Below the pieces are notes generated by a model. That model did no database searches. It saw nothing but the letters and a program-made list of their open reading frames with translations, and was not told the DNA's origin. From positions 4,559-68,558 of the IMG/VR virus record IMGVR_UViG_3300049027_000047: DNA of 64,000 bases; one strand, given 5' to 3'. The stretch's first letter is position 1. The number at the start of each line of letters is the position of its first letter. Below, piece by piece: positions 15,309 through 49,936 of this stretch. This stretch comes from a virus. The position numbers were made by a program, and so were the translations under genes.

Positions 15309-15316
15309 AGCAACAC

Positions 15317-22786: not shown

Positions 22787-24007
22787 ATGCCTACTCCTGA
22801 GTGTTCCGCAGTGAACGACTACTTCGTGACTGAGAGCGGTCGTTTCATTGACAAGATCGTCGAACGTGGCCGCATGAAGTCTTGGTGGTCTTCCCTTGGC
22901 GGCAATGGTATTCCCTCTGAACCCTATCCTGACGGGATGGGCCTAAACTTCAACAACACCATCTGGGAGCGTTCTGGACGCACGGGTGGGGGCTGGACGG
23001 CTCAAGCGCTGAACTCTGGCGGCACTTCTGTCTGCGTACCTGACGCGGGCATTGTGTACCCTGCCAACACGGTGCGCACCTCCGTTGGCTACAAGCAGGT
23101 GCTCTACACCGACTACATCTGCTTGGAAGACGTTCGCCGTGGCTACGAGTTCAAGCAGCAGGTCGCTGGCATCCGGGACAACTTCCAAGACCAGATTGTT
23201 GACGAGTGGGAATACCTCAACCGTCAGCAGTACGTGACTCTTGGGAAGAACAAGGTGGTGTTTAACCCCCAGCTTCCCAACAACACCTCTGGCACCACGA
23301 TGACGGACTTCCCGGCTCAAGAGCCGACCAGTCCCATCACCCAGAACTACCTCGACCACCTGCGTTATGCGCTCAACCGCAACTCCGCAGCCATCGACGG
23401 TGGGGCCTATGCCATGGAAGACGGCCAGCCCGTTTACATGGTGGTGATGTCCCCTGAGCAGCAGCAGAGCCTGTTCCAGTCTGGCGGTACGATCTACCAG
23501 TCCAGCCGCATCAACCAGGACCTGCGCTACACCTCGGAGGCTGACAAGCTTTTGAAGGCATACGGTGTGAACCGGACTTACCACGGCTGGTTCCACATGA
23601 TCGACTACAAGGCCCCCCACTACAACTTCGTCAACGGAGCATGGGTGGAAGTGCCTTACTACTCGTCTGCCGCTGCCACCAACGGTACGCAGCTTCAGGT
23701 GAACCCTGACTACGAATCCGCTGACTATGAACTTGTCATCGTGTTTGTGAAGACGGCGATCACCCGCATGGTTCCCAAGACCTTCACCAGTGCCGGATCT
23801 GATGCCACCTTCAAGGCATGGGATTACGCTGGCACGGTCCAGTGGATCAACGCCTACGACCGCACCTGCAACCCGCTGCTCAACAACGGGTACTTTGCAG
23901 CCCAGCTGCAGGCCACCTACAACCCGAAGAAGATCGATAACGCCTACTCCATTATGGTGAAGCGTTGCCCCCGCGACTTCGAGATGGTGACCTGCACTGT
24001 GTCCTAA
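22787..24007 (+). CDS. major capsid protein
   Basis: 406 aa after scaffold, strongly biased codons, followed by a strong hairpin; 6 Cys. Confidence 0.75.
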   Translation: MPTPECSAVNDYFVTESGRFIDKIVERGRMKSWWSSLGGNGIPSEPYPDGMGLNFNNTIWERSGRTGGGWTAQALNSGGTSVCVPDAGIVYPANTVRTSVGYKQVLYTDYICLEDVRRGYEFKQQVAGIRDNFQDQIVDEWEYLNRQQYVTLGKNKVVFNPQLPNNTSGTTMTDFPAQEPTSPITQNYLDHLRYALNRNSAAIDGGAYAMEDGQPVYMVVMSPEQQQSLFQSGGTIYQSSRINQDLRYTSEADKLLKAYGVNRTYHGWFHMIDYKAPHYNFVNGAWVEVPYYSSAAATNGTQLQVNPDYESADYELVIVFVKTAITRMVPKTFTSAGSDATFKAWDYAGTVQWINAYDRTCNPLLNNGYFAAQLQATYNPKKIDNAYSIMVKRCPRDFEMVTCTVS

Positions 24008-30093: not shown

Positions 30094-30095
30094 AA

Positions 30096-30341: not shown

Positions 30342-30345
30342 TTTT

Positions 30346-30417: not shown

Positions 30418-30529
30418 CTATTTTCTTCTTGCGCTTCATGCCAAGGATTGTAGTTTTGATGCAGCCAATCCGATTGCTGTCACAATCAGGCGTAGATTTC
30501 CGAGGGAGAGAATCCTGAGGCAGAATACC

Positions 30530-31901: not shown

Positions 31902-32004
31902 AGTCCATATGCTGTTGATACTGAATAGTTTTTATGCTAAAATGACAAAGCTGAGAGCCTGTTTCCGCAGACTCCCAGCCTCTAACCCTAGACATGCTGT
32001 AATC

Positions 32005-32700
32005 ATGAATAGAACTGACATCATCAAGCCACAGACGCAGTCCACATTCAAGGACATTACTGGACAAAAGTTTAACCGTTTGACCGTTCTCGGAGTCAGC
32101 GCATCAACTCCAAAATGGCCGTATATGTGGGTTGTGAAATGCGACTGCGGGAATATACGGGTATCTGGTAAAAGTCATCTTTCCCTAGGGAAATACACTA
32201 GCTGCGGGTGTAGAAAAGCTGAAAATAAATCTACCCACGGGGCCACCAGAAAAGGGAGCATCAAGACTCAGGAATATGGCATCTGGGAAAAGATGAAAGC
32301 CCGTTGCTACAACCCTTCTCAGCATGCTTACCATAGATATGGAGGCCGTGGAATTTTGATGTGCGAAAGATGGAGAACCTCCTTCAGCGCATTTTATGAG
32401 GATATGGGCAAGAGACCGTCAAAACTGTATCAGATTGACAGGATAGACAATGATGGCCCATACTCGCCTGAAAATTGTAGGTGGGTCACTAGGAAAGAGC
32501 AGTCGAGAAATAAATCCACAAATGTTTTACTTCATGCTTTTGGTGAAACGCTGTGTGTTACAGACTGGGCAAATCGACTAGGTATCACCACTTCTTCCCT
32601 TTCTAAGCGCCTGAGAAAGGGATGGCCATTAGAGGTCGCTCTCTCTACCCCACGAACCTTAAAATTCAACAAATGTACCCATGCCGTACACCCCATTTAA
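32005..32700 (+). CDS. HNH homing endonuclease
   Basis: DITGQKFNRLTV, CDCG, YGGRGILMCERW, QIDRIDNDGPYSPENCRW; AT-richer than flanks. Confidence 0.85.
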   Translation: MNRTDIIKPQTQSTFKDITGQKFNRLTVLGVSASTPKWPYMWVVKCDCGNIRVSGKSHLSLGKYTSCGCRKAENKSTHGATRKGSIKTQEYGIWEKMKARCYNPSQHAYHRYGGRGILMCERWRTSFSAFYEDMGKRPSKLYQIDRIDNDGPYSPENCRWVTRKEQSRNKSTNVLLHAFGETLCVTDWANRLGITTSSLSKRLRKGWPLEVALSTPRTLKFNKCTHAVHPI

Positions 32701-33586
32701 ATTTTTAGATCCAGCTTCCCAAAATACTTCGGGTAGGGGAGGGTTGTCCACGTCTAGGGGAGGTCAAACATGGTTGGGTGCAGCCCCAGTTCCTCAATCT
32801 GTAGCCCCTGCTGGCGGGACTCGGCTCATGCCATCCCGCAGACGTTCTGTAGCCCCACTAGGCTCCACTATCACCTACAACGGCGGATCTGGCGGCATGG
32901 GCAGGCGTCAGCCATCTGGAGGCGGTGACATGTCCAGCCGTCCAACATTTCTTTCATCAGACGCCTATTACAACGCCCGTGGCTCTGGTCTGGACTGGCT
33001 GGAACGCTACGGTCCTAACCGTGGATCACAAGCTGCTCCATCCCTTGGATCTGCTTCCTACGGTGGGCGCACATTGCCATCAAATGGCACCATCACCAAC
33101 GCTGCTGGCACCCGTGCACGTTCTGGGAACTCGGTGATTGACTTCACCACTGGTCAGAACCTTCCAGCCACCAATCCCTACACTGAACTCACTGGAGACT
33201 ACGATGCCCCTGTAAGCGATACATCCCCTGAAGGACGGTTTGCCCGTATGGGACAGGAACAGGAGATGCTGGCTGCTGAAGGACTGGAAGCTGGTCGCGC
33301 TGCTGCCAATCAAGTCCGTCAGATGCAGGATCAGGCATCTGTCCCAGCCCTGACCCAAACTGCCACACCTTCTGGCCTTGGAAGGATGGCTACAGGGCGC
33401 TACGGGGTTGGATCAGTGTATCCAACAGGAGGAGGTCCATCCAAATCCTTTGGACGATTCAACTCCCCTTCGCCTGAAGCTGACCGACAGGTTGAGTTGG
33501 GAGAGAAGGCCATCGCCAACAGGCGCAAGGCTGGCATCTCTGAACAAAGCCTCCTGGATTCCTATTACCGCAGATTCGGCCGATGA
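32681..33586 (+). CDS. putative internal virion/ejection protein
   Basis: G/S/A-rich low-complexity ORF before the giant gene. Confidence 0.5.
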   Translation: MPYTPFKFLDPASQNTSGRGGLSTSRGGQTWLGAAPVPQSVAPAGGTRLMPSRRRSVAPLGSTITYNGGSGGMGRRQPSGGGDMSSRPTFLSSDAYYNARGSGLDWLERYGPNRGSQAAPSLGSASYGGRTLPSNGTITNAAGTRARSGNSVIDFTTGQNLPATNPYTELTGDYDAPVSDTSPEGRFARMGQEQEMLAAEGLEAGRAAANQVRQMQDQASVPALTQTATPSGLGRMATGRYGVGSVYPTGGGPSKSFGRFNSPSPEADRQVELGEKAIANRRKAGISEQSLLDSYYRRFGR

Positions 33587-34587
33587 ATTTCAACCGGACC
33601 AACGCCCAAGACTTCCTTGGTGAGATGAGTCCTGCCGGGCAGCGTGTCCAGCAGGCTCTTTCGCCTTATCAGCAATTCCGCGTCAGCGGGAGTGTTACTC
33701 CTCCTGCTCAAGATGTGGGTTTCTCTGATCCATTGGGGGCGTTTGAAGAACTGGACCCAGCAGATGACTCCTTCCTTGAGAAGCAGAGTGTCATCTTCCA
33801 GTCTGCTCCTCCAGAGCTGTTCCGTAGCCCTTCTGTCCAGAACCGGATCAGACAGGCCAATGCAGCCCATGCAGAGGCCCAGACCTACTTCAAGGAAGAT
33901 CCAACACTGGTGGACTTCTACATCGAACAGCGGGGTCAGAACATTCCTCCTTCTGTGGCGCTGGGGGAACTCAGGAAGCGTGCGCAGGACAACTCCCTCA
34001 AAGGAGCGTTCCTGAAAGCTGGTGGATTGGTGGATGAGTATGAGACGCTACGTGATCCTACCACGGGACAAGTGGACAGGTTCAAGATGCTTGACTACGT
34101 AAACCGTAGGGAGAGGGAAGCGTCCGTCAAGAAAGCGAATGCTCCCAAGGAACTTCCGGCAGAGGCTTACAGCAGGATCGACAAGGCCCGCTCTGATGTT
34201 GAGAATCTGATGGCCATCTCCTCCGACCCAGCGAAACTGGCAGCGTATTACGAAGACAAGACCAAGAAGAAGATGAACTCGGGCAAGACCGACAATATCG
34301 ACGAAGCTTGGCGGATGATTAATGAAGAACTGAAGGCTGCAAAAGATGTGAATGACCGCACCCTGAGATCGTACAGCAGGCAGTATTCCGTCCCTCCTGA
34401 GCTTGGTGGAGAGGCTCCCGTTGAACCCCAGTGGATGGATGGCCCAAATCTGTTGCAACAGAATGCTCAACCAGAGAGCATCCAGTCCAACGCAGCAGTT
34501 CCTGCCACTGTCGCTCCACCGACTGCCGCCGCTCCCGCCAAGGAGCCAGTCACTTCATGGCTTGAGCGCAACAAGAAAAAGCTCTGA
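33583..34587 (+). CDS. putative internal virion/ejection protein
   Basis: helical; ATGA-coupled; precedes the giant gene. Confidence 0.55.
   Translation: MNFNRTNAQDFLGEMSPAGQRVQQALSPYQQFRVSGSVTPPAQDVGFSDPLGAFEELDPADDSFLEKQSVIFQSAPPELFRSPSVQNRIRQANAAHAEAQTYFKEDPTLVDFYIEQRGQNIPPSVALGELRKRAQDNSLKGAFLKAGGLVDEYETLRDPTTGQVDRFKMLDYVNRREREASVKKANAPKELPAEAYSRIDKARSDVENLMAISSDPAKLAAYYEDKTKKKMNSGKTDNIDEAWRMINEELKAAKDVNDRTLRSYSRQYSVPPELGGEAPVEPQWMDGPNLLQQNAQPESIQSNAAVPATVAPPTAAAPAKEPVTSWLERNKKKL
34449..34462. repeat. dispersed palindrome copy 11 TCTGTTGCAACAGA
   Basis: inside CDS, read as NLLQQN. Confidence 0.9.
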
Positions 34588-34592
34588 TCCAA

Positions 34593-37500
34593 ATGGCAAC
34601 GAATATCCTTCCTCCTGACATTGACGAAATCACTGGATCTGAAGACTGGAAGACCTTTACTCCAGACCAGCGCAATGCCCTGGTAGATGATTGGGCTGTA
34701 CAAGCTCGTAATGCCCAAGACTGGTCCCCTGATGAACTGAAAGCTCTGGATGAGTCTGTAGACTACTTCCGCGCTAATGCGCTGGAGACCTTCGGAGAAC
34801 AGGCCAAGCGTATTGTCAAAGAGGGGGCTGTAGGAGCGGTGAAGTCGCTGGCAGCGCTTCCTCTTGCTGTTCCCAAGCTCGGGTTTCAGACGGGTAAACT
34901 GACTGGTTACGGCCAAGATCCAAACGTCTCTTCACGGGAATTGGTCGAGGCTGCCCCTGAAATTGCAAAAATGGGCGTGGCAGGTGAGCAAACAATCCAA
35001 GGTTTGGATACGCTTCGCCGTCAATACGATCCTTTCACAGACACTGATGAAGAATGGGAGGGGGAGTTCGATTCTCTCAGGCAAGATGTTTTGGATAGGA
35101 AACTTCCTGAAGATCCAGACAAACTGTACGACTACCTCAAGAAGAAGGCATTCAAGATCGCCCAGCAGAACGCCAAGTTTTACGGGGGAGAGGCCGATGA
35201 CTATATGCCCCAAGAGTTCCAAGGCGGCAATGACGAGGAGATTTTCAAGAACTACTTTAACCAGGCCCTCACAGGAAAACGTCCAGAGGGGTTCATCGAG
35301 TTCCGCGATGATACTGTCCCTCAGCAGGGTCTGGTGACTAAGAACCAGTCCCGATCCCTCATCACCTCACCGGAAAACCTTGGCCTGCTGATGAAGTTCA
35401 GCGCCACAAGAAACCCGATGTATTTCGAGGCCCTCAAGCAGCGCCTTGGAAGATCGCGTGAGCGTCAGGTGAGCGATGCGGTCATGGAATACATCGAGGA
35501 CAGGCGTGGAGAGGGAGATTTTTTCGATGATGCTGCTCAGACAATATTTTCTGTAGGTGGACAGTTCCCAGAAGCTGGGAAGGCCATGGAGGAAGAAGTC
35601 AAGGCGCTTGCGTCTTCACCCGTGGACATGGCAAGCACTGTGTTCAGCTTTGGTCTTGGTAAACAGGCCGTCAGGCAGGCAGTAGAGAGAAACCTTCTGA
35701 AGTCTGCTGGCTCTGTTGCAGCAGGTGTTGGTACAGAATTCCTGGAAGGGGCGCTAAGTGGTGTAGCAGACACATCTATTCCCGATCCTAAAAACATCCT
35801 TGAACAGGGTCTCATGGAGGCAGTTGGTGGGGGTGTAATACAGGGCGCTGGAGCAAGTGTTGCAGCCCTAAGGGAGGCTGCAAACAGGTCTGCAATACCA
35901 CTGGATGAAAGTACGCCAGTCGAAACAGTTGATTCCGCTCAACCTCTTCTCACCCCAGAGGAGCAGGTGGAGATAGTGCCTCTTTCTCCTGAAGTGGAAG
36001 AAACTCTTGCTCAGGCAGATGTCGTAGATCAAGCTTCGTCACCTCTTACGGCGGAAGTATTGAGAGAGGAGGCAGACGCCCTTTACCAAGAGGAGACTTC
36101 TCCCATTGAGGAACCCGTTGAGCCTGCTGTTACTGAGCAAGCCTTGGAGGAAGGAGCAGTGGATCTAGCCTCCATGACTCAGGAGGAGTACGCGGACTAT
36201 CTGGCAGAGAATGGAACTCCAGAAGGCGTGTCCATGTACGATGCTTTGACTGCCAGGCCCGACCAGAGGGGGTTCACAGCAGCCCAGAGGGTGGAAGCCT
36301 ACCAAAAGAACAAAGACGCCTCCAAGGCCTTTACACAGCGAATGGTGGATCTTTGGGAGGCGCTTAGACGCACTCCTATTGATGGCATCCTTGCCCGTGG
36401 AGCAGACTCTGGATGGACGAACTTTGAAGTGGGCCAAGACACCCACCAAGCAAGGACGGACCGCTACAAGTCCTACGCGACACTCCGAGACCCTCTTGCT
36501 CTCTCCCAAGAGCAGGCAGTTGGATTTCTTGAGGCCCTGAGAGATGCTGGATACAATGGGCAGGTGAAGTTTCCAGGCATGGGAACAAGAGCGCTCCTGG
36601 GATTTGACAATGTTGTGATGCATGGAGCCTCACAACAGGACGCCGCTCTAGGAGAACAAGTGGCAAGGCAGTTCTTTGGAGGCGACCTAACAGCTACCCA
36701 GTTTGGAGTGGATCGTGGTGGTAAAAGCCATTCACAGAGCCTTGCAGAGCAGACAGAAGCAAAGCGTAAAGCAAATGAAGGAGCCAAGTCTAACGACCCA
36801 ACAGGTGCAGGAACTACGTCTAATGCCAGCCAGGCAGAGGTATCGCAACCTGCTCCGCAAGGGACTCAGCCGACAGGAGGTGCGAAAGCTGCTACACAAG
36901 CACGGCCTGTAAATCTGTCACAACAGAATCCGCTGCTAGAAGCAGACCCTGTTGGCAGACTGGCATCCCAGATTGAGCAGGCTGAAGCGGCTGAAGTCGA
37001 TCCCGCTGAGAAGTCCAAGCTGACAGCTTTCAGGGATCAGCTTCCAGCCATCCTTGACCGTTACCGCAACCTCTTTGAAGGGGTCATGTTCACGCGCCTT
37101 CGCTCAGGAGGTGGCGTCACGACTGGGGAGCTTACTGACACGCTCAGGATTGATCCTCAGAGACTCTTGGAGAACATCATGGCCGCTCCTACGACCGAGG
37201 ATTCCATCGTGGCGTTTGAGACGATGATGGATGAGGAATTCCGGCATCGCGTCACGCTTGAACTGGACAGGACAAACCCAGAGTTCAAGACGGATCTACA
37301 GGCGCTCTGGGACAATCTACCAGAGGATGTTAAGACTGCCTCAGCGGAACTCTACTTCAAAGAGACAGGGGCACGGTACAACTCCGACTGGCAGGCTAAA
37401 CACGAATTTTTCCGCCAGTATTGGCAGGATGCAGACATTCGCAGGCTCACAGAGGCATCCCTGAAAGAAGGGGGACGCTTTGAGTTCCTGCAACGCCTGC

Positions 37501-40500
37501 TGGACAGCTTTGTCAAAGCCCTCCGCTCCCTTAGAGAGGGCGCTGATGCCAACCTTAAACCCATTCTGGACCGTCTCATTGCCCGTGCTGAACAGCGGGC
37601 CAACGAGATCAAGTCAGCATCAAAGACGGATACAAAACCCTCCACAACCCAGACATTTGCGCCGGGTCTATCACAGGAGCAGCGTGCGGAATTTGTCAAA
37701 ACCGTTGGAGAGGCTGCGAGATCCGTTCCCGAGCAATCACGATGGGGTGATGACAAGGTGTTCATCTCAGACCTGTACAAGGAGTGGTCTAAATCCCATC
37801 CCGAATCTACCTTGGAAGACTTCAAGGAGATGCTGACGGAGGCCCGTGGAGAGGTCCAGCTTGGTCGTCTTGACTTGGTTGAGTCCCTCAAGCCTGAGCA
37901 ACGTCAAAAGATGAATGAGTCCATGATTCACTACATGGATGAACAATGGAGCCTGTTGAGGATTCCAACCCAGAAAGCGGCCCCCAGTGCTGAGACGGTT
38001 GAGGAAAGAGCAGCACCTGTCAAAAAGCCCGTACTCAGGGAAGCCCCTGAAGGACTGACTTTCCCAAAGATTCCCACCCAGCAGTCAACCGTAAAACCAA
38101 CAGGCCCACCCAAAGCTCCTGTCCCGGTTCAGCAAGAGGCTACGCAAGAACCAGAAATAACCTCTCTCAAACGTGCTGTAGTAGATGCAGAGAGAGTTTC
38201 CCGTGGTGCTGAGGCCATCCCCACCCCTAAACGTCGCGGGTGGTCGCAGGCAGACCTTGAGGCTGAGGCGCAAGTCAAAGCCAACCCAAAGGCAGGACAA
38301 GAACTGCTGGCAAAGCTTCAGGCCAATCCACGTGCTCTGTCCGACACGGAGAACTCCCTTCTCTTGTTCTACAAGGTGGATGTGCGTAATGCCATCGACA
38401 ACGCCTCCAAAGCAGTCAATGAAGCAACCTCAGAGACAGACAAGGCTGACGCTCAAGCTGTCCTTGACCAACTTCTCAACGAGTACAACAACATTGATAT
38501 CTTCAGCCGTCTTGCAGGAACGGAGGCTGGACGGTCTCTCAACGCCCGCAAGATGGAGCGGGAACTCCTCAAGCGGGACATTAGCCTTGCATCCCTCCTC
38601 CAACAGTACCGCAATGCCAAAGGAGAGTCTCTTACAGAGACTGAGCGCAAGGAGGTGGAGAAGAATGCCGAATCCCTTCAGAAGGCGCAGGAGAAGGTTG
38701 ATAAAGCCAAGGCTGACAAAGAGACTCAGAAGTCCAAGCCTGTAGAACGACAGATTGCCAAGGACACCTTAAAGCAGGTCCGGGAAGAACGCGCCTCCGT
38801 GAAAGGCGGTGTAAAGAAGCGCCTCGCTGAGAAAGCCAAGGGGGCCAGGGAATGGCGCAAGGCGAATCCTTCTCCTGTTGCTGAGCTGGGTCAGGCCGAT
38901 GTACCGGAAGCTGTTGAGCCAGTTAAACAAGCAGCCCTAGAAGCCCTGGAGCCGCCGTCACGTCCAGTTCCTAAAATCACCCTGAAAGCTCCCACTGCTG
39001 AGCAGCAAGCTCGCATGGAGATGATGGACAAGGCCAGGAAATCTGGCCCGGTGAGAGCTATTGCCAAGGAGGCAAAACCTTCAAAAAAGGTCACTGTTGC
39101 AGAGTTACGAGACAGTGTGCGAGGGACCTATCCTGCTCTGAACAAGGCGGCTGGCTCTGAGGTGGTGGACGAGTATTCCGAGCAGGCGTTTGCCTATGAA
39201 GGCGATGCCATGGCATTGGCTAGAACCTTGGGTAACTTTGATGTCGCAGTTCTGGACGGTCCTTGGAACAATTTCGCCAAAACAATAGGTCTTCCTCACA
39301 ATGAGGTCTTCAGACATCTTTCCAACCTGCTCAACCAGGTTGATTCAGGGACTCCTCGTGGAGTTGTTGCAGAAGATCTAGACCGGGTGATTGCCCGAAT
39401 TCCTGAATTCGTCAAGGCGCTACGCAGTCTCTCCAAAGAACAGCTGGATACCCTTAAGAGCCTTGGTAGCACCGTCGATTACAAGGCTGCCGCTGATGTT
39501 TACGAGACCGTTGCTCCCGAGGTGTTTAACTCCTTCAGGGACTACATCCTGACTGAACCTGAACAGGGCCTGAGCGCTCCAAGTTCACTCACTGATAGCA
39601 ACATGCCTCCTGGAGCTGCATCCATGAGAGGGAAAAGCATGTCTCAAACCTCTAAGGAAGTTGGAAAATACAAATCGCAAGCCTGGGAGAAGGCGAAAGT
39701 GGATGCAACCAAGGGGCTTAAAGGGTCCAAACTTGCCAAGGCCAACAAGGCGATTAGCTACTTAGAAAAGGCGCTGGATAAATATCAGCACCTTTTTGTA
39801 AAAGGCGTGCGCCTGTCTGATCCTTCTGTTGGATCTGATGCCGAACACATTGCTGATGGAACTCCAATGTGGCCGGGAGAGTACTCGGGGAAAACCGATC
39901 TTGTCATTGATATTCCGAATTTTTTAAATGCATTTGCAGAAAAGCCTAATGCAAAGACAATTCAAACCCAGGTCGAAGAGGAAATCGTCCATCGCGGCGT
40001 GATGGCGGTAATTTCTCCAGAGGAGGCCGCAAGATTGTGGGAAAATCTCCCGAAAGGGATTCAGGAGCGTGTCCACAGGACCTATCACTTTCGCAACATT
40101 CTTTCTGGAAATTTGGCGGCTGATCTTGCTCCAGATTTGACGGAAAACCAAAAATCCAACTATGCGCACGAGTTTCTCAGAGCACTGATTTCTGACAAAG
40201 TATTTCGTGGGAGAGTCACTGAGTCTGTTTTAAGCAAGGACCTTCCACTCGCCAGGAAGGTGATGCTGTATCTTCAGAAATATGTAGAGCGGCTTCGTGA
40301 AATGCTCTCTACAGCTCCAAAAGCTGTTCAGCAGGAGATTCGACTTTATGAGGATCTGGTGTCCCGCGCCTTGAGAGACATGCAGAAAGGCATTCCGCGT
40401 CTTGGTGGATTGCGCTTCTCTTCTAAAACGCCTGGAGCGCCTTCTGTCGCAGGCAATGTATTCTACCGTGCTGGAGATGCTGATGAGGTTGGCATCAAGC

Positions 40501-43500
40501 CTTGGTCTTCATGGACTCGTAAAAAAAAGACCGCTGAAGCTTACCAGGACAATCCTGGATTCGGCGGTCCAGTGATACGTTCAGAATCGTTGCCAAGTGA
40601 TCTAAACATCTATGAACTAGATCGCCCTTCAAGACGCGTCTTTGGGGACATGGCAGAAGCTATTGGCCTAGATAGAGAGACCGGGGAAGATTGGTTTGAT
40701 TCTGGATACCAATACCCATGGGAAGAATCGTCAAATGCAAGGAAGGCCTTCGAGGAGTCGGAATTTGATGCCATTGAGTACACAGATGACTTTCCTGCTG
40801 GAGCAAGAACCATTGTTTTCACTCGACCAGTATCCTCATCCCCAGTTGAGGAAGGTCTCTCAGCGCCTTCAGCCATCAACGCACATGCCGAAGCACTAGC
40901 AACTATCGGCGCTGAGTACATCGAGAACGGAGCAACCACCCTCCCAAAGTACACCAAAGAACTGGTGAAGGAGTTTGGAGAATCTGTCCGTCCACAGGCC
41001 CAGATGCTCTTTGAACGGTCCAAGGAGATTCGTGAAGAGACCCAAAAAGAAATCGCTGCTGAAGAAGAGGCGATCAAGAACTCCTCTGATCCCGCCAAGG
41101 TGCTGGAAGCTGGGAAAAAGCGGCTAGAAGACCAGCCGTCTGACAAGGTGAACAAGAAACTGGCGGCGGACATCTACAGGGCCTACATCCGTTCCAAACC
41201 CTCCATGAAACCGGAGGATATCGTAGCCAGTGTAACCAAGGATATTCATGGGATCTACCCCAATGCCACGGAGAGCGATGTCCGTGTTGCTCTGACAGAC
41301 TACGGGAAGGCCAAGTGGCCCAGCAAAGACGCTCTGAAAGCCAGAGAGGCTGAGGATCGGAGGATCATCCGGTTGATTGAGTCTATCGAGAGGACCAAGA
41401 GAGGAGATAAACCACTTAAATCAGGTCTCCAGCGCAGCAAGCCCACCGCAAGGGAGCGCGAGCTGACCAAGGAGTTGAAGGACCTGATGCGTGACAACAA
41501 GGTTGAGACCACCTCTGAGGCTCAGCTGACCTCTTCACGGAAAGCCATTGTCAACCGCCTCAAAAACCAGATTGAGGAGTTGAATAGGATCATTGAAGGT
41601 AAGGCCAAGCCTGGAAAGGACCGTCAGACCGTCGAATACGACCAGGAAATCAACGACCTCATCAAAGAGCGAAATGACCTCAAGGCGTATGTCGATGATC
41701 TGACTGGACCCTCTCCATCTGGGAAGTGGAACCAACAGGCCCAGCGTGCTGCAAAGGCTATGGCAGAGTATTACCGCCGTAGAATTCAGCAGAACGACCT
41801 TCGCAGCAAGGTTTCCCCGTCATTTAAGGCTACCGAAGAGACTGATAAACTCAAACAGGAGGCATTGGATGCCAAGGCTGAGTTTGACACCCTTCGAGAT
41901 GCTGCTGGGATCACCCAGGAGGAGCAACTGGCCTTGCAGAAAGCTGCTCTGGAGAAGAAGGTAGCTGAACTGGAGAAACAGATCCAGACTGGTCAGAATC
42001 CCCCAGAAGGCAAGAAGAGGGCCAAGTTCTCTGAACTGGAACCACTTAAACAACAACTCAAGAGCCTTCGTTCCACCATCAAACTTCTGGAAGGCAAAAC
42101 CCCAGAGACTGCAAGGGCCAAAGCTGCTACCAAGGCCATCCAGAAGTCCATCGACGAACTGCAACGCAGGATCGCCCAGAAAGACACCTCCAAGCCTGAA
42201 AAGAGGACTCCCGTGGACAACGAGGAGCTTCGAGCACTGCGTCATGAGCGTGACTTCTGGAAGGAAATCTATGATGGAGTCAAAGAGGCTGAAAACCCAC
42301 GCAGACTCCCTGAAGAGATTGCCTTGGACAACCTCAAGCGCAGGATCGAGAAGAAGCGTTATGAGGCTGAGAAGGGCATCAAGAATCAGGAGTATCTTGC
42401 TGTGCCTCCCGTGAATCCAATGTTTGAGCAGAGGGTGAAGACCGCTCTGTTTGAGCAGGATCAGGCCCGTAAGGAGTGGAACAACTGGCTTCTGGAGAGA
42501 AAGCTTGCAAGCAGAGGCAAGGGAGCCAAGGCTCTGGACTTTGTTGGTGAGATGCTCAACCTGTCCCGTGGCATCATGACCTCCATAGACATGAGCGCCG
42601 TGTTGCGACAGGGAGGTTTCCTTGTGGGGGCAGACCCAAGGGATCTAGCTAAAAGCTTCGAACCTATGATCAAGGCTTTCTTCCACGAACAGGCCCAGTT
42701 TGAAGCCATGGAGGCTATCAAAAATGACCCCGATTACGCTGCATCACAAAGGGCGCAAGTCTTCCTCTCAGACATGAATGACTCCGATCTATCCAAGATC
42801 GAGGAGGCGTTTTTCAGCCGCTGGTTGAAGTATGTAAAGGGATGGAAAGGGGCTGCGCTTGGTGCCGTCATCGGAGGGGCCACGTTTGGACCTGTCGGAG
42901 CTATTGTAGGGGCTGGGATTGGCGGTTCTGGAGCCATTCAAGGCTCTCAGCGTGCGTACACTACCTTCCTGAACGTCCTTCGCTTTACTCGGTTCAAGGC
43001 TATGAAAAACGCCTTGGAAGCCAATGGTCCAGAACTGACCTTGGAGGAAGGGCGTCAGCTCGGAAAGTTCATCAACATGGCGACCGGAAGAGGTTCTTAC
43101 GGGTTGAGCGAGAAGAATGCCGCGAACCCATTACTATCAACGATTTTCTTTGCTCCCCGGTTGGTGGCATCGCGGTTCAATCTCCTGTTCGGCCAACCGC
43201 TCTACGGCGGCACAATGCGGACAAGGAAGGCGATTGCCAAACAGTATGCCGGATTCCTTGCGTCAACTACGCTGGCCCTCGGCCTATTAGCTCTGATGCG
43301 ACCGCCAGAGGATGATGATAAGAAGTTCATTGAGTTTGATCCACGGTCTGCCGACTTCCTCAAGGCCCGGTTTGGGAACACCCGTCTTGATATTTTTGGT
43401 GGTCTCCTGCAAGTGACTGTACTTCTTAGCCGTCTTTTCACAGGAGAGACCAAGACAATAGCAGGCAACGAAGTTGCTTTGAGGGACACGTTCAGGCCGT

Positions 43501-43817
43501 TGGAATATCTACGCGAAAAGATGGGCAAGGAACTCTTGGGAGACAAGCCCCGCATTGGTGGTGGAGGTCTCGATGTGATCGGGCGCTTTCTACGTAGCAA
43601 GCTCAGCCCCATTGCAGGATCTCTATCCAACATAATGGATGGCAAGGATTTCAACAATGAGCCTACATCTGTGCAGAAAGAGCTTGAGAAGATGCTGGTC
43701 CCCATGAGCGCCAACAGCATCTTGGAGGCCATGGTGGACCAAGGAATCCCCAGAGGAACAGCCCTTAGTATTCTCGCATGGTTCGGGGCTGGACTACAAA
43801 CCTACGAGCCCAAATAA
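34593..43817 (+). CDS. giant (3074 aa) polyvalent internal virion protein
   Basis: ejection-protein position; two degenerate zincin-like EExxH...HEF modules, ART-like YRAG/SSWT module, coiled coils, hydrophobic C-terminal region. Confidence 0.75.
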   Translation: MATNILPPDIDEITGSEDWKTFTPDQRNALVDDWAVQARNAQDWSPDELKALDESVDYFRANALETFGEQAKRIVKEGAVGAVKSLAALPLAVPKLGFQTGKLTGYGQDPNVSSRELVEAAPEIAKMGVAGEQTIQGLDTLRRQYDPFTDTDEEWEGEFDSLRQDVLDRKLPEDPDKLYDYLKKKAFKIAQQNAKFYGGEADDYMPQEFQGGNDEEIFKNYFNQALTGKRPEGFIEFRDDTVPQQGLVTKNQSRSLITSPENLGLLMKFSATRNPMYFEALKQRLGRSRERQVSDAVMEYIEDRRGEGDFFDDAAQTIFSVGGQFPEAGKAMEEEVKALASSPVDMASTVFSFGLGKQAVRQAVERNLLKSAGSVAAGVGTEFLEGALSGVADTSIPDPKNILEQGLMEAVGGGVIQGAGASVAALREAANRSAIPLDESTPVETVDSAQPLLTPEEQVEIVPLSPEVEETLAQADVVDQASSPLTAEVLREEADALYQEETSPIEEPVEPAVTEQALEEGAVDLASMTQEEYADYLAENGTPEGVSMYDALTARPDQRGFTAAQRVEAYQKNKDASKAFTQRMVDLWEALRRTPIDGILARGADSGWTNFEVGQDTHQARTDRYKSYATLRDPLALSQEQAVGFLEALRDAGYNGQVKFPGMGTRALLGFDNVVMHGASQQDAALGEQVARQFFGGDLTATQFGVDRGGKSHSQSLAEQTEAKRKANEGAKSNDPTGAGTTSNASQAEVSQPAPQGTQPTGGAKAATQARPVNLSQQNPLLEADPVGRLASQIEQAEAAEVDPAEKSKLTAFRDQLPAILDRYRNLFEGVMFTRLRSGGGVTTGELTDTLRIDPQRLLENIMAAPTTEDSIVAFETMMDEEFRHRVTLELDRTNPEFKTDLQALWDNLPEDVKTASAELYFKETGARYNSDWQAKHEFFRQYWQDADIRRLTEASLKEGGRFEFLQRLLDSFVKALRSLREGADANLKPILDRLIARAEQRANEIKSASKTDTKPSTTQTFAPGLSQEQRAEFVKTVGEAARSVPEQSRWGDDKVFISDLYKEWSKSHPESTLEDFKEMLTEARGEVQLGRLDLVESLKPEQRQKMNESMIHYMDEQWSLLRIPTQKAAPSAETVEERAAPVKKPVLREAPEGLTFPKIPTQQSTVKPTGPPKAPVPVQQEATQEPEITSLKRAVVDAERVSRGAEAIPTPKRRGWSQADLEAEAQVKANPKAGQELLAKLQANPRALSDTENSLLLFYKVDVRNAIDNASKAVNEATSETDKADAQAVLDQLLNEYNNIDIFSRLAGTEAGRSLNARKMERELLKRDISLASLLQQYRNAKGESLTETERKEVEKNAESLQKAQEKVDKAKADKETQKSKPVERQIAKDTLKQVREERASVKGGVKKRLAEKAKGAREWRKANPSPVAELGQADVPEAVEPVKQAALEALEPPSRPVPKITLKAPTAEQQARMEMMDKARKSGPVRAIAKEAKPSKKVTVAELRDSVRGTYPALNKAAGSEVVDEYSEQAFAYEGDAMALARTLGNFDVAVLDGPWNNFAKTIGLPHNEVFRHLSNLLNQVDSGTPRGVVAEDLDRVIARIPEFVKALRSLSKEQLDTLKSLGSTVDYKAAADVYETVAPEVFNSFRDYILTEPEQGLSAPSSLTDSNMPPGAASMRGKSMSQTSKEVGKYKSQAWEKAKVDATKGLKGSKLAKANKAISYLEKALDKYQHLFVKGVRLSDPSVGSDAEHIADGTPMWPGEYSGKTDLVIDIPNFLNAFAEKPNAKTIQTQVEEEIVHRGVMAVISPEEAARLWENLPKGIQERVHRTYHFRNILSGNLAADLAPDLTENQKSNYAHEFLRALISDKVFRGRVTESVLSKDLPLARKVMLYLQKYVERLREMLSTAPKAVQQEIRLYEDLVSRALRDMQKGIPRLGGLRFSSKTPGAPSVAGNVFYRAGDADEVGIKPWSSWTRKKKTAEAYQDNPGFGGPVIRSESLPSDLNIYELDRPSRRVFGDMAEAIGLDRETGEDWFDSGYQYPWEESSNARKAFEESEFDAIEYTDDFPAGARTIVFTRPVSSSPVEEGLSAPSAINAHAEALATIGAEYIENGATTLPKYTKELVKEFGESVRPQAQMLFERSKEIREETQKEIAAEEEAIKNSSDPAKVLEAGKKRLEDQPSDKVNKKLAADIYRAYIRSKPSMKPEDIVASVTKDIHGIYPNATESDVRVALTDYGKAKWPSKDALKAREAEDRRIIRLIESIERTKRGDKPLKSGLQRSKPTARERELTKELKDLMRDNKVETTSEAQLTSSRKAIVNRLKNQIEELNRIIEGKAKPGKDRQTVEYDQEINDLIKERNDLKAYVDDLTGPSPSGKWNQQAQRAAKAMAEYYRRRIQQNDLRSKVSPSFKATEETDKLKQEALDAKAEFDTLRDAAGITQEEQLALQKAALEKKVAELEKQIQTGQNPPEGKKRAKFSELEPLKQQLKSLRSTIKLLEGKTPETARAKAATKAIQKSIDELQRRIAQKDTSKPEKRTPVDNEELRALRHERDFWKEIYDGVKEAENPRRLPEEIALDNLKRRIEKKRYEAEKGIKNQEYLAVPPVNPMFEQRVKTALFEQDQARKEWNNWLLERKLASRGKGAKALDFVGEMLNLSRGIMTSIDMSAVLRQGGFLVGADPRDLAKSFEPMIKAFFHEQAQFEAMEAIKNDPDYAASQRAQVFLSDMNDSDLSKIEEAFFSRWLKYVKGWKGAALGAVIGGATFGPVGAIVGAGIGGSGAIQGSQRAYTTFLNVLRFTRFKAMKNALEANGPELTLEEGRQLGKFINMATGRGSYGLSEKNAANPLLSTIFFAPRLVASRFNLLFGQPLYGGTMRTRKAIAKQYAGFLASTTLALGLLALMRPPEDDDKKFIEFDPRSADFLKARFGNTRLDIFGGLLQVTVLLSRLFTGETKTIAGNEVALRDTFRPLEYLREKMGKELLGDKPRIGGGGLDVIGRFLRSKLSPIAGSLSNIMDGKDFNNEPTSVQKELEKMLVPMSANSILEAMVDQGIPRGTALSILAWFGAGLQTYEPK
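36914..36927. repeat. dispersed palindrome copy 12 TCTGTCACAACAGA
   Basis: in an interdomain linker of the giant CDS. Confidence 0.9.
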
Positions 43818-43819
43818 GC

Positions 43820-44374
43820 ATGTTGATCCCCAAGGTCTTCAACACTACTCCCCAGGGAGGATGGGTTTACGTCTCAGAGTTCTCTGGGATGAGGCATGGC
43901 CCATTCTACTCCTACGACCAACTCCTGGATTCCGTCAAGAAACACCGTCAGGCCAACGGAATCTCCACTCCTCTGGGATGGGAATATGATTTGTGGAATG
44001 ACTACTGCACCCAGCAGCACGCTGACTGCAAGGAGAACAATGAAGTCCATGAAGACCAGCTAGTCACCCAGATTGGACGGGCGTTGTGGGTGGAATTGCA
44101 CGAGTACACACAGAACTACCCAGATTCTCCTACAGAATCAGATCAGAAGTACGCTGGAGAGTGGCTGGGTCATTGGATCAACAGGATTCCACGGTTCTCA
44201 AAGTGTGGATGCAGGTCCAGCTTTGACAAATGGTACTCGGTTTACCCTGCGCCATTCAGTTCAGGGGCAGAGTTCAGGCGCTGGGCTGTCATCATCCATG
44301 ACAGGGTGAACCAAAAGCTGGGGAGACCGCTTTATGACGAAGGCAGCCGCACCCACCCGATATTTCAGGTCTAA
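43820..44374 (+). CDS. Erv1/Alr-family FAD sulfhydryl oxidase with N-terminal TPxGGWxY domain
   Basis: IGRALWVELH...YPDSPT...KCGC...WAVIIHDRVNQKLGRPLYD matches the Erv/ALR pattern GxxxWxxLH, YPxxPT, redox Cys pair, WxxxxHNxVNxKLGKP. Confidence 0.8.
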   Translation: MLIPKVFNTTPQGGWVYVSEFSGMRHGPFYSYDQLLDSVKKHRQANGISTPLGWEYDLWNDYCTQQHADCKENNEVHEDQLVTQIGRALWVELHEYTQNYPDSPTESDQKYAGEWLGHWINRIPRFSKCGCRSSFDKWYSVYPAPFSSGAEFRRWAVIIHDRVNQKLGRPLYDEGSRTHPIFQV

Positions 44375-44433
44375 ATTTCCATTGCGCCACGTCCTCACTT
44401 GAGCCATGATGTTGCCAAGCCTTTCCAAAGCAT

Positions 44434-44474
44434 GGCTCCGTTTCCGGCTCGCGCTGGGACGGGGCCACTTTTTT
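44434..44474 (+). terminator. intrinsic terminator at the convergence with terL
   Basis: GGCTCCGTTTCCGGC-TCGC-GCTGGGACGGGGCC followed by T-run. Confidence 0.6.
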
Positions 44475-46530
44475 AACCAGACCCGTATGTGAAGGTCTGA
44501 CCGAAGAAAGTGTCCACCTCCTGCATCTTGCGGGACCATGCTGCCCATGGGCTCTCTGCTGGAGCACCGTTTTGTGTTGCTTTGACAAGAGATGTCTCTT
44601 TGGAGGACAGATCAAACCTCTTTCTGGCGGCAAAAATGCAGAGGAATAAACTGTCTGCACGATCTGGACTCTTCCCAGTGATTTTCTTCATCTCCTCTTT
44701 GGGTTGAACCCGGATCTTTCCATTGCGCGTCTCGTAGGTTCTTGCGATCATCTGGGTGATGGTGTCTGCATCCAGACCCCTGATCTGTCCATTGCGCATC
44801 AACTCCTTCCCGACGTGCCAAAGTTCTGCCACCATCCGGTCGTAAATCTCGTTTGATGGTCTCTTGTCCGTGTTGGAAGCAGGCATGTCGCTAGGCTTCC
44901 CGCCAAATTCCACTGCCAGCCAGCCGTCTCCAATCTCCCGGCGCAGCAGAGAACCGAAGGAGGCCGCTCCAGACACGTCCACAGCCCCATTAATGACCTT
45001 GAGCTGCTTCTTCGCCAACAACTCCTTCACCTTGGCGGCAACCTGTTCGTCCTTTGGGAGTGGATTGTTCACATCCACATCAATCCTGATGGTTTCTTTA
45101 CGCTCGAAGGTCTTGTAGCCAGTGGCCGAATCGTTCCCTACGTGACCAATGGTGAAAATAGCATCATCTCCTCCATGTTTAAAGGAAGGATCAAGGCTCC
45201 AGCACTGGTCAAATCCACTTCTCCAGTTCCACCCCTGACCTACTGGCCTGTCAGCGCCATAAGTGACAATCTCACTCTCCGTGTAGATGCTCTCAATGGA
45301 ACCTGTAGGGCACCAGAAACCCCGGTACATCTGGTAGAACCCAGGAGAATTCTCACCCAGGGCTATTTTGGCATCTTCGTAATCCTGATACTCAAGAAGT
45401 CCCTTGTAGATGTTCTTTCTGGCCAGCACGTTGGGACTGGTTCTGGCATCAAACCGTATCACAAACGCTTTTTTACCCTCCCACTCAAACAAGGACTCGT
45501 TGACCGATGACCAGCCATCCTTGGGCTCGCACATTTTCCCAAGAGGATCATAGAAGCTGGTTGGGTTTCCTATCCCCACCATCTGAAAGAAGTGGTTGTT
45601 GCGCAAGTTGCTCTCTGCTGAGGAGAGCAGGTTGTCGGAAAGGTCCGTCATTTCATCGCAAATGAAGAAGAACCGTGGTCGCTTGAACCCTTTGATCTTG
45701 TTCCAAGACTTGGCGGCTTCACTTTTATCGCCTGCAACAAGAGTCATCCCAGCCTTGTCAGTGGAATCACTGCCGATCACGCAACGGATTGTTCCATCAG
45801 AAGACACCAGTTTCCCCGGGACATCCCCGCCGTAAGCGTCTGCGGCAGCACCCCAGAACTCCTCCACATCCCCCCAGATTCGACCGCGGGAATCCTTGAG
45901 TGAAGTGGAGGTGATTAAAACTTTGGTGTTGATGGGAAAACAGAGGTAATTCCATACCCCCCATGCTGCTGGAACGTAGGTCTTCCCCCCGGAAGCGTGA
46001 CCGCCTATGGCAAGGAACTGCTTCTCACATAAGGCTTTAAGCATCCTCTCTGTGTAGGGGCTGAAGACAACAGGTTTTCTGGTGTTGATGCCCCAGATCA
46101 TCTCCATCCCCCGTTTACAATGCTCGTACTTGCTGATGGCCCCAGGAACCCAGATTTGGTATTCCTTCTGGGTGCGCATGTTCATTTGAGGGTTGAAGCT
46201 CAAATAGCACTGCATCTCGATCTCCACATCCAGCATGGCCCTGATGGGGACCAGTTCCACTTTCCCGCTCTTGGCTTTCCTCTCAATGCAATGAGAACCC
46301 CATCTCCTCCCGTACTTGAACCGCTCAAACTTGCCGAGGGGCTTCCTCTTCAACTGCTCTGATCCCCAATCCTCCAAAAGAGTGTCATAGGCCAGACCCA
46401 GTTCTACATCCTCAATCTCCTTGAGATTGGGGACGCCCAGTTTCTTGAAGGAAGCGACTGCTGAATCCTTGAAGCCCTCTTTGACGATGACCTGGATCAG
46501 CCCTTTTACGTCGTCTCGGGTGCGTTCCAT
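44473..46530 (-). CDS. terL: terminase large subunit
   Basis: Walker A GGHASGGKT, Walker B FICDE, GIGNP, nuclease SLDPS/GGDD and SPDRADS; own promoter TTGCTC-17-CAATAT. Confidence 0.9.
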   Translation of the reverse strand: MERTRDDVKGLIQVIVKEGFKDSAVASFKKLGVPNLKEIEDVELGLAYDTLLEDWGSEQLKRKPLGKFERFKYGRRWGSHCIERKAKSGKVELVPIRAMLDVEIEMQCYLSFNPQMNMRTQKEYQIWVPGAISKYEHCKRGMEMIWGINTRKPVVFSPYTERMLKALCEKQFLAIGGHASGGKTYVPAAWGVWNYLCFPINTKVLITSTSLKDSRGRIWGDVEEFWGAAADAYGGDVPGKLVSSDGTIRCVIGSDSTDKAGMTLVAGDKSEAAKSWNKIKGFKRPRFFFICDEMTDLSDNLLSSAESNLRNNHFFQMVGIGNPTSFYDPLGKMCEPKDGWSSVNESLFEWEGKKAFVIRFDARTSPNVLARKNIYKGLLEYQDYEDAKIALGENSPGFYQMYRGFWCPTGSIESIYTESEIVTYGADRPVGQGWNWRSGFDQCWSLDPSFKHGGDDAIFTIGHVGNDSATGYKTFERKETIRIDVDVNNPLPKDEQVAAKVKELLAKKQLKVINGAVDVSGAASFGSLLRREIGDGWLAVEFGGKPSDMPASNTDKRPSNEIYDRMVAELWHVGKELMRNGQIRGLDADTITQMIARTYETRNGKIRVQPKEEMKKITGKSPDRADSLFLCIFAARKRFDLSSKETSLVKATQNGAPAESPWAAWSRKMQEVDTFFGQTFTYGSG

Positions 46531-46618
46531 GCTAGAAACACCCATATTGCCATCTTCCTTGGCGCAGAGCAACGGCTAAAAGTCTTGAACTTCCACGCTT
46601 TTACGCCACAATGGCCGC

Positions 46619-48796: not shown

Positions 48797-49405
48797 ATGA
48801 CTACCGAAGAGATCAAAGACATCCAGCGCAAGATTGGTGTCATTCCAGATGGAGAGTGGGGTAAAATCAGCAACACTGCCTGCCAGAAGTATCTGAAGGA
48901 TCTGATGGTCAAGTCTGGGCGATCCTTCCCCAAGCCGAAGACAGCGTCTTTCAATGAGTTCTGGGGGCCTCATGGAGTGGCTGGCGGATACACTCCCCCG
49001 ATGAGGAAGATTACCCTGCCATTCACTCTCTACCTGTACGGAGACAGGAATCAGCCTGTTCATTCTCTTCGTCCGCACGAGAAGGCGGCGGATGCGTTTC
49101 TGGAAGCGTTTGAGCACCTTGAGGCGCAATATCCTACTGAGGAGGCCCGCAACAAGGCTGGAATCACCATCTACGACGGTCTCTACAACCCACGGTTGAT
49201 GCGTGGCAGTTCCACTACTTGGTCAATGCACTCTTGGGCGATTGCCCTGGATCTAAACGCTGGCCCTAATGGTCTCCACGCTCACTGGCCCCGTAAGGCG
49301 GTGATGCCATTTGAGGTTTACGAGTGCTTTGCAAAAGCTGGAATCTCCAGTCTAGGGTGGTCCCAGAACCGGGACGCGATGCACGCAGAGGCAGTGGGCA
49401 TTTAG
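48797..49405 (+). CDS. endolysin, M15-family peptidase
   Basis: YNPRLMRG, SMHSWAIALDLN, DAMHAE; N-terminal IQRKIGVIPDGEWG peptidoglycan-binding-like. Confidence 0.85.
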   Translation: MTTEEIKDIQRKIGVIPDGEWGKISNTACQKYLKDLMVKSGRSFPKPKTASFNEFWGPHGVAGGYTPPMRKITLPFTLYLYGDRNQPVHSLRPHEKAADAFLEAFEHLEAQYPTEEARNKAGITIYDGLYNPRLMRGSSTTWSMHSWAIALDLNAGPNGLHAHWPRKAVMPFEVYECFAKAGISSLGWSQNRDAMHAEAVGI

Positions 49406-49710
49406 GGGACGTTCTTCTCCAGTTCCAGTAGCCTCAATTCCAGCACAGCAAGGCAATTCCAGGCCATATGGGCCTCATGCCAGAGCGAGGAGTCTTTGTC
49501 CTTATCCTCTACGGCGTGCTTGAGTAGATGCCTCTGGAGGGCATCCCTGTAGCGTTGTAGGCCGTTTGGGACATCTTTCCATGATCCCTCCTCATGAAGG
49601 GTCAGGCCGTACATTCCGACTTCTGCAACAGCCTGTATGGCCCTTGGAAACCCATGTAGGATGAGCGATGGGCGGACCTTTCCTTGATCGAACTTGGCTC
49701 CTCCCTGCAT
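49402..49710 (-). CDS. dATP/dGTP diphosphohydrolase-like (DUF5664) protein
   Basis: GAKFDQGK, VAEVGMYG, YRDALQRH, HEAHMAWN. Confidence 0.75.
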   Translation of the reverse strand: MQGGAKFDQGKVRPSLILHGFPRAIQAVAEVGMYGLTLHEEGSWKDVPNGLQRYRDALQRHLLKHAVEDKDKDSSLWHEAHMAWNCLAVLELRLLELEKNVP

Positions 49711-49711
49711 G

Positions 49712-49936
49712 TCAGGCTTTCTTCTTCTTGGCTGCTTTGCGACGCTTCTTCCACCCATTACTGAGGGCTTCAGAGAACTTCTCCTTGGCCTCTGGAGAGT
49801 GAGCCTTGGGGGCTGCCCACCGCTGCTTTCCACCCTTGGATCTCATCTCTCTGAGGTACTCGTCAATCACAAGCTTCTTCTCATCCTCAGAGAGGGGTTT
49901 CTGGCATGGTTGGTGAAGAATGACCTTCTCGCTCAT
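49712..49936 (-). CDS. small basic putative DNA-binding protein
   Basis: YLREMRSKGGKQR...SPE; Lys-rich tail. Confidence 0.55.
   Translation of the reverse strand: MSEKVILHQPCQKPLSEDEKKLVIDEYLREMRSKGGKQRWAAPKAHSPEAKEKFSEALSNGWKKRRKAAKKKKA

Follow-up and report, generated by a model that had tools for sequence, protein, structure and literature searches.

Sulfhydryl oxidases of the Erv/ALR family are textbook enzymes of eukaryotes and of their large DNA viruses. In the single-domain members Erv2p (1jr8/1jra), Erv1 (4e0h, 3w4y), ALR (1oqc, 3r7c) and Arabidopsis Erv1 (2hj3), a helical bundle carries a tryptophan and a histidine on helix 1 and an H-x2-V-N motif on helix 4, the redox cysteines lie at the start of helix 3, and extra cysteine pairs outside the core act as shuttle disulfides. 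The virus-encoded members, African swine fever virus pB119L (3gwl), mimivirus R596 (3gwn, 3td7) and vaccinia E10R, are made late and belong to viruses that assemble in a reducing cytoplasm; the poxvirus disulfide pathway also uses A2.5L and the thioredoxin-like G4L. One study states that bacteria lack homologues of the viral Erv1/Alr enzymes and gives CxxC as the signature of the family (PMC10598087). Among phages, the HK97-fold capsid of Agrobacterium phage Milano has intrachain and interchain disulfides, seen by cryo-EM, that give mechanical and heat stability, and the sections of that paper drawn on here name no phage-encoded oxidase (PMC10491603). We describe here a gene at positions 43820-44374 of a 64,000-nucleotide stretch of DNA (the window; positions 4,559 to 68,558 of IMG/VR record IMGVR_UViG_3300049027_000047, a stand-alone virus contig, 68,558 bp long and 53% GC) that assigns an Erv/ALR domain to a tailed bacteriophage. 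Its 184-aa product joins an N-terminal domain to an Erv/ALR domain with a Cys-x-Cys motif where the canonical enzymes have CxxC, and the protein may be one form of a modular oxidase that acts on the phage capsid.

The strong Erv/ALR signature on which the original prediction was built is borne out by both sequence and fold. The Pfam model Evr1_Alr (PF04777), proposed at that time as a check, matches residues 87-174 with an E-value of 8.8e-13 and 48.9 bits against a curated cut-off of 27.6, and phmmer against the sequences of the PDB recovers Erv2p, Erv1 and ALR at E 6e-9 to 1e-8. Identity to the yeast, mammalian and Arabidopsis single-domain enzymes is only 25-29%. An AlphaFold model built from 10 sequences has a pLDDT of 85.3, and its top structural matches are confined to the Erv family. 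Foldseek returned 11 matches at E <= 0.001, every one an Erv enzyme, with TM scores by target of 0.68-0.76 (Erv2p, ALR, Erv1, AtErv1 and pB119L). A VIA-align search that was exhaustive over 48,161 chains placed Erv structures in all of the top six positions: pB119L, the best structural match, at Z 13.2, Erv2p at Z 13.1 (2.1 Å over 95 residues), two Erv1 entries at Z 12.8 and 12.6, and two R596 entries at Z 11.0 and 10.9, whereas the first unrelated chain scored Z 6.8. Residues 78-176 are therefore a genuine Erv/ALR domain. W90 and H94 on helix 1 and H160-x2-V-N164 on helix 4 align with the matching residues of Erv2p, Erv1 and ALR, at the positions that contact FAD in the family; W90, H94 and H160 are invariant in all 36 two-domain relatives that we collected, and N164 in all 10 close homologues. 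PHROGs gave no match for the 184-aa protein (best E 0.11) and NCBIfam gave none. A complex prediction with two protein copies and FAD scored 0.00; it was run without controls and has no bearing on dimerisation either way.

What sets the phage protein apart is the motif at the flavin. The CGEC of Erv2p, the CNWC of Erv1 and the CEEC of ALR align to C129-G-C131 with a one-residue gap, and in the AlphaFold model the helix starts at residue 131; canonical CxxC is not present, and CxC stands in the same place. The KCGC motif had been singled out in the original prediction, and it has turned out to be neither an error nor a peculiarity of one protein. C129 and C131 are invariant in 10/10 close homologues and in 36/36 two-domain relatives, which reach down to about 25% identity, and the residue between them varies freely among those relatives. 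An exhaustive profile-free search of 1.84 billion representatives produced 609 matches at E <= 0.001, from which the best 150 were combined with the close homologues and a 4625-aa repeat protein was excluded, giving 159 sequences. CxC is found in 118 of these, CxxC in 36 and neither in 5. The N-terminal domain is present in 37 of the 159, and 82 of the 118 CxC proteins are short stand-alone Erv domains without it. On a tree of 157 Erv domains the motif type is strongly clustered, requiring 9-11 changes compared with about 34 in shuffles, which points to a selected, working motif; the tree is poorly resolved, and the domain is too short for it to establish a single origin of CxC. Judged by these comparisons, the CxC form of Erv is a large clade of more than 100 sequence clusters and not a one-off, and the phage protein is a homologue within a distinct CxC subfamily rather than a canonical Erv enzyme.

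Other features can be compared with those of the known types. The redox cysteines of the phage protein are at the start of helix 3 and it has an extra cysteine pair outside the core, as do the single-domain Erv/ALR enzymes; in contrast to them it has a globular N-terminal domain in place of a flexible tail, lacks the C-terminal structural CX16C pair, and is encoded by a tailed phage. It resembles pB119L, R596 and E10R in being encoded, presumably as a late product, by a virus that assembles in a reducing cytoplasm; those enzymes have CxxC and their viruses infect eukaryotes. Redox-active CxC motifs are familiar from other positions: Erv2p has a C-terminal Cys-Gly-Cys shuttle and CGC peptides serve as mimics of protein disulfide isomerase, although a literature search for the Erv2 shuttle found no paper. 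One article describes the CPC of Mia40 as a redox-active CxC motif and mentions the shuttle cysteines of Erv1 (PMC4019985). Mia40 and Erv2p show that a Cys-x-Cys disulfide can cycle and can be strongly oxidising, and the phage motif is literally CGC; their CxC motifs are shuttles or face the substrate, whereas that of the phage is at the position of the flavin-stacked disulfide. Mimivirus R596 carries an extra domain that is termed unclassifiable (PMC3509050), just as the phage protein carries its N-terminal domain.

Because the flavin-site residues and both CxC cysteines are strictly conserved across a diverse clade, the protein is most likely a flavin-linked thiol oxidase. It would work in the cytoplasm as a soluble sulfhydryl oxidase with the Erv/ALR fold and FAD as cofactor; FAD binding and activity are predicted from its relatives. 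The flavin-proximal redox disulfide would be formed by Cys-x-Cys, and electrons would pass from substrate dithiols, possibly through the cysteine pair of the N-terminal domain, to the CxC disulfide, from there to FAD and finally to O2. There is no hydrophobic segment in the protein (the maximum 19-residue hydropathy is 0.45), so the product should be soluble and cytoplasmic. The enzyme would be made late, together with the structural proteins. Its ATG is 2 nt past the stop codon of a 3074-aa open reading frame (ORF), and downstream a hairpin at 44383-44467 (-36.5 kcal/mol, z -2.97) precedes a U-run and the neighbouring gene is convergent, so that the Erv gene is the last of the rightward late operon, the position claimed for it at the outset. 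A consensus promoter and terminator scan gave nothing in this intergenic region and did not flag the hairpin. The start was set at 43820 and not at the in-frame ATG at 43778, because the N-termini and lengths of the homologues agree with it: the nine database homologues, with 49-89% identity to the query, are 183-184 aa long and all start with ML.

The N-terminal domain has no known family in family and structure searches. Its cysteine pair, C63 and C70 (Cx6C), is invariant in 10/10 close homologues and present in at least 90% of the 36 two-domain relatives. The pair was proposed as a possible shuttle disulfide; it is also retained in proteins that consist of the N-terminal domain without a redox module, which weakens the shuttle reading, and the pair may be either a shuttle or structural.

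Relatives of the phage reveal that the Erv domain is one of two partners of this N-terminal domain. A scan of IMG/VR with a first alignment found no relative, and a motif scan found one related complete genome (G001; 66,915 bp with terminal repeats), which shares with the window's genome (G000 in these comparisons) the capsid, a putative portal, the terminase and three other proteins at about 30-35% identity. Its Erv homologue has 187 aa, a CAC motif and a PF04777 score of 38.2 bits, and the gene begins at the stop codon, with overlapping codons, of an ORF of at least 1999 aa without cysteine. A capsid-alignment scan of IMG/VR gave 166 relatives, and 80 loci were kept. Run on the 42 records whose contigs reach 40 kb or more, a profile of the two-domain family matched in 37, including 28/28 of those at least 90% complete; all but two of the 37 matches cover the N-terminal domain only, none covers the Erv domain, and the two longer matches (G029, G033) also end before the Erv flavin motifs. 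Reading the 37 genes showed that in 33 the N-terminal domain, with its cysteine pair, is followed by an unrelated domain of about 110 residues with seven cysteines (hereafter the 7-Cys domain). Two others have a short tail ending in CGSC, and the remaining two (G021, G023) encode the N-terminal domain alone, in 75-78 aa. The N-terminal domains of Erv-type and 7-Cys-type proteins align with a probability of 99.7% in hhalign (E 1.2e-25, 73 columns), and the rest of the proteins does not align.

The seven cysteines of the alternative domain are invariant, in the pattern CxxC...C...CxxCxC...CW (loci L121-L157; for example L122, 1498-2091, + strand). The family comprises 143 clusters, and the 120 that were listed all lack a Pfam family and go by no name beyond 'hypothetical protein'; searches placed the domain in no known family, with only a weak zinc-ribbon-like match to eL43 (E 0.05). 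The homologous gene lies directly after a long ORF with 0-1 cysteine, running off the locus, in 20 of the first 30 loci and in 7/7 further ones. The capsid tree pairs G001 as sister with a genome of the 7-Cys type (support 99/97), within a clade of 13 such genomes, and places the capsid of the window elsewhere; grouping the two Erv-type capsids is rejected with p-AU 4.8e-6, a group that was named after seeing the first tree. The N-domain tree does not reject the grouping of all Erv-type N-domains in one clade (p-AU 0.197). The simplest reading of these trees would be that whole genes of the two types replaced each other at the locus more than once. Repeated replacement at one locus suggests that the Erv and 7-Cys modules do equivalent jobs, and the 7-Cys domain may then be a catalyst of analogous kind, an idea for which iron-sulfur disulfide reductases with CxC motifs provide a precedent.

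A metagenome scan found only canonical CxxC Erv genes (loci L001-L007) on low-GC, giant-virus-like contigs, clearly distinct from the CxC type of the phage. Scanned with a degenerate motif, 185,579 species genomes yielded 26 matches due to chance and no Erv gene, so that no prophage copy or host clue emerged from that motif. When four Erv queries were compared by tblastn with GenBank phages (50,697 records), no true phage record was matched. The only match was 'Mollyvirus Mo1-1', which we rejected as a phage carrier of Erv: this 620-kb entry is classed with the Caudoviricetes, its gene names follow those of Mollivirus ('ml_') and its motif is the canonical CSTC, so that it is probably a giant virus caught in a taxonomy name collision. 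That record (L158/L159; GenBank BTJB01000001.1, 528020-529662) contains two adjacent Erv-like genes, both with CSTC.

The capsid is the structural protein whose cysteines behave as disulfide partners might. The claim of six capsid cysteines, some near both termini, is correct: they are at positions 6, 83, 112, 361, 394 and 403 of 406 residues. We aligned the query with 26/33 homologues, setting aside four that were near-identical, two that were truncated and a weak match of 612 aa. C83, C112, C394 and C403 are present in 27/27 aligned capsids, and C6 and C361 occur together in 21 and are jointly missing from 6. Among 114 capsids of the family, 111 have both C83 and C112 and 3 have neither, and 109 have both C394 and a second cysteine 6-12 residues further on and 5 have neither, with no mixed case for either pair; for an N-terminal cysteine and C361 the capsids divide into 55 with both, 52 with neither and 7 that are mixed. 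By this co-occurrence the six cysteines act as three pairs, each of which is retained or lost as a unit. The Milano disulfides were seen directly, whereas the candidate disulfides of this HK97-fold capsid are deduced from co-occurrence alone. In the capsid model the termini, which hold C6 and C403, have low confidence. The only two searched genomes whose capsids lack C83, C112 and C394 are G021 and G023, both complete, which are also those with the N-terminal domain alone; the capsid cysteines thus seem to track the C-terminal module on the shared N-domain protein, which is Erv here and 7-Cys elsewhere.

The other structural proteins do not share this behaviour. A 'tail adaptor' with seven cysteines had also been predicted; two ORFs of the operon do have seven (17113-18543 and 30927-31901), and neither has a family assignment. 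Between G000 and G001 the putative portal shares no cysteine, the 30927-31901 ORF none and the 17113-18543 ORF four, so that conserved cysteine pairs are found in the major capsid protein and not in the putative portal or the 30927-31901 product.

The reading that we favour, with a probability of about 0.5, is that the protein is a cytoplasmic phage disulfide oxidase that acts on the capsid, and that it represents one of a pair of interchangeable modules. This reading builds on the homology and fold, the conserved motif, the order of the genes and the co-occurrence of the cysteines. The most likely substrate would be the HK97-fold major capsid protein, in which three disulfides, predicted as C6-C361, C83-C112 and C394-C403, would form in an otherwise reducing cytoplasm, and the Erv domain would be one of two C-terminal modules that can stand in for each other on a shared N-terminal domain, at an unchanged place in the genome. 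We hold the capsid role at only this level because most relatives manage without Erv. PF04777 was found in one of 31 related IMG/VR genomes (G001; 1/29 of those at least 90% complete) and in 0/14 control genomes, and most of the 30 that lack it still retain capsid cysteine pairs. The expected correlation between the presence of the oxidase and the capsid cysteines therefore fails for Erv as such, and Erv is not required unless the 7-Cys domain does an equal job. Other observations weigh on the same side. G021 and G023 are sister genomes and count as one event; the phylogenetically independent contrasts are few (one for C83/C112, one to three for C394 and its partner, eight for the N-terminal cysteine and C361), only two or three of the last eight go together, and no sign test is significant. 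The defining CxxC is missing from the phage Erv domain, and our literature search found no paper on a phage or bacterial Erv enzyme or on one with CxC at the flavin. Nor did a relay like that of the poxvirus pathway come to light: among the 102 ORFs of 60 aa or more in the complete 68.5-kb genome, Pfam found no thioredoxin- or glutaredoxin-like partner, a search that divergent or small proteins could escape, and a multi-step pathway of the poxvirus kind is thus not shown. The retention of the C63/C70-type pair in proteins without a redox module belongs here as well. The virion cross-linking pathway of the original prediction thus survives in part, in the paired conservation of the capsid cysteines, and loses ground through the absence of Erv from most relatives, the failure to find a relay, and the scarcity of shared cysteines in other structural proteins.

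A working Erv oxidase could have a different target, such as other phage proteins or the thiol pools of the host (thioredoxin, low-molecular-weight thiols), or it could be packaged with the giant cysteine-free protein encoded upstream and act at entry. We think this unlikely, but the gene order gives it some substance: the gene is tightly coupled to the giant ORF, by a 2-nt gap here and by overlapping codons in G001, and a long cysteine-poor ORF precedes the N-domain gene in 20/30 and 7/7 related loci. Most relatives retain capsid cysteines in the absence of Erv, and a ferritin/Dps-like gene in the genome would fit with peroxide production, although this gene is without a BLASTP counterpart in G001. 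What points back to the capsid is that the proteins reduced to the N-terminal domain are paired with capsids lacking cysteines. It is less probable still that the conserved function resides in the N-terminal domain, which might for instance help the giant protein or the head to assemble or serve them as a chaperone, with Erv as an exchangeable and possibly non-catalytic appendage whose CxC does not cycle. The N-terminal domain is the only part of the protein that is conserved across the lineage, its C-terminal partner is swapped or missing in relatives, and the canonical CxxC is absent. A decayed enzyme would be expected to lose its key residues, but those at the flavin site and both CxC cysteines are invariant in 36 sequences to about 25% identity, and CxC dominates a clade of more than 100 clusters in which 82/118 proteins lack this N-terminal domain.

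There is only a slight chance that the capsid cysteines have no relation to the enzyme and either bind a metal or are oxidised spontaneously by air after lysis, as has been assumed for other disulfide-bearing phage particles. The invariance of four of them in the close family would suit a metal site equally well, none of the true phage records in GenBank was matched by the Erv queries, and Milano has an extensive virion disulfide network with no dedicated oxidase named in the sections consulted (PMC10491603). Against a single four-cysteine metal site is the loss of the cysteines pair by pair rather than all four together: G017 and G029 have lost only the C-terminal pair and keep C83/C112. That pair also lies on a low-confidence tail, with a spacing that varies from 6 to 12 residues.

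If the capsid-oxidase reading is extended to the lineage as a whole, a tentative model, more doubtful than the reading itself, is a modular, self-encoded capsid-disulfide system. An N-domain adaptor with its own cysteine pair, encoded in every case just behind a giant cysteine-free virion protein, would carry a swappable oxidising module, either the CxC Erv or the 7-Cys domain, which would install three capsid disulfides; the ejected proteins would be kept free of cysteine, and loss of the module would be followed by loss of the capsid cysteines. The 7-Cys domain could then be a new kind of metal- or iron-sulfur-based disulfide catalyst. Several features of the locus are of wider relevance. 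A tailed phage carries the Erv fold, in a clade of more than 100 clusters in which CxC replaces the defining CxxC at the flavin, and within one phage lineage Erv is exchanged with an uncharacterised cysteine-rich domain on a common adaptor. If active, the enzyme would explain how some phage capsids could gain disulfides before lysis, and it would offer enzymology a natural CxC-flavin pair and the bacterial cytoplasm a compact disulfide-making tool. The features discussed are collected in Table 1.

Table 1. Positions in the window of the Erv-domain gene, its parts and the genes considered with it.
Feature	Coordinates	Strand	Basis or remark
Major capsid protein, 406 aa, six Cys	22787..24007	+	HK97 fold from model
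Giant ORF, 3074 aa, directly upstream of the Erv gene	34593..43817	+	No Cys; three hydrophobic segments; no family
Two-domain protein gene (N-terminal domain + Erv/ALR domain), 184 aa	43820..44374	+	ORF; stop codon 44372-44374
N-terminal domain, residues 1-77	43820..44050	+	No known family; holds C63 (44006-44008) and C70 (44027-44029)
Erv/ALR helical-bundle domain, residues 78-184	44051..44371	+	Pfam, PDB sequence matches, AlphaFold model, fold searches
C129-G-C131 redox motif, start of helix 3	44204-44212	+	Alignment and model
Long hairpin then U-run, probable late-operon terminator	44383..44473	+	Between convergent genes
Putative large terminase subunit, 699 aa, convergent	44473..46572	-	Weak match, E 3e-7, Akkermansia phage Chambord

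The assignment of the genome to the tailed bacteriophages (Caudoviricetes), made in the original prediction, agrees with the HK97-fold capsid, the weak terminase match and an M15 peptidase gene for lysis (Peptidase_M15_4; endolysin). The best matches of the capsid model are cyanopodophage Pan3, Shigella phage Moo19, coliphage N4, cyanophage A4 and Pseudomonas phage DEV, so the modelled capsid is HK97-like in fold and most like those of N4-type podophages. No Pfam or PHROG family was matched by the structural genes. The match of the terminase to the annotated Chambord protein spans 16% of the query and is the only host clue; the G001 homologue is 34% identical. Further genes encode a Toprim/DnaB primase-helicase, a DNA methylase and four tRNAs.

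The three ORFs that precede the Erv gene (32681-43817, + strand; 301, 334 and 3074 aa, 3709 aa in total) contain no cysteine, as would be expected of proteins that need to stay free of cross-links. At the genome-wide cysteine frequency of 1.76%, a run of 3074 residues without cysteine has a probability of about 2e-24. For the giant ORF, searches of Pfam, PHROGs and PDB sequences gave no match, and its hydrophobic segments are near the C-terminus, at residues 2753-2777, 2884-2902 and 2932-2950. It is likely, we infer, to be a virion-internal or ejection protein, and a cysteine-free giant protein with C-terminal hydrophobic segments would fit passage through the tail without cross-linking. The capsid similarity suggested an N4-like virion RNA polymerase as its identity, and we rejected this candidate, which is backed by no search result. 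Its C-terminal 450-540 residues (window 42200-43814) match only G005 and G012 (L128, L144) of 22 relatives, at E 1e-80 to 1e-85; such strong similarity in only 2/22 indicates that the giant proteins comprise several unrelated C-terminal types.

Some other genes of the window deserve mention in their own right. The ferritin/Dps-like protein (PF00210, E 2.5e-8; phrog_3636) is encoded at 13659-14057 (+) and could guard against peroxide made by an oxidase. It is followed, just 5' of the head genes, by a trio of methyltransferase-domain genes at 14115-16039 (+), of the Methyltransf_11, FkbM-type Methyltransf_21 and Methyltransf_23 families. In the middle of the structural operon, a gene for a nitroreductase-family flavoprotein (PF00881, E 2e-13; 29420-30418, +) is followed by the four tRNA genes (Gln, Asn, Pro, Arg). 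Two paralogous HNH endonucleases, at 10078-11061 and 31909-32700 (+), match phrog_374 at E 3e-60 and 2e-66; both are rich in cysteine (11 and 10), and the second sits within the structural operon. On the opposite strand, 49402-49833 encodes a protein with a dATP/dGTP diphosphohydrolase N-terminal domain (PF18909, E 3e-20), a family that occurs in phages that replace adenine with 2-aminoadenine, and it may hint at modified DNA.

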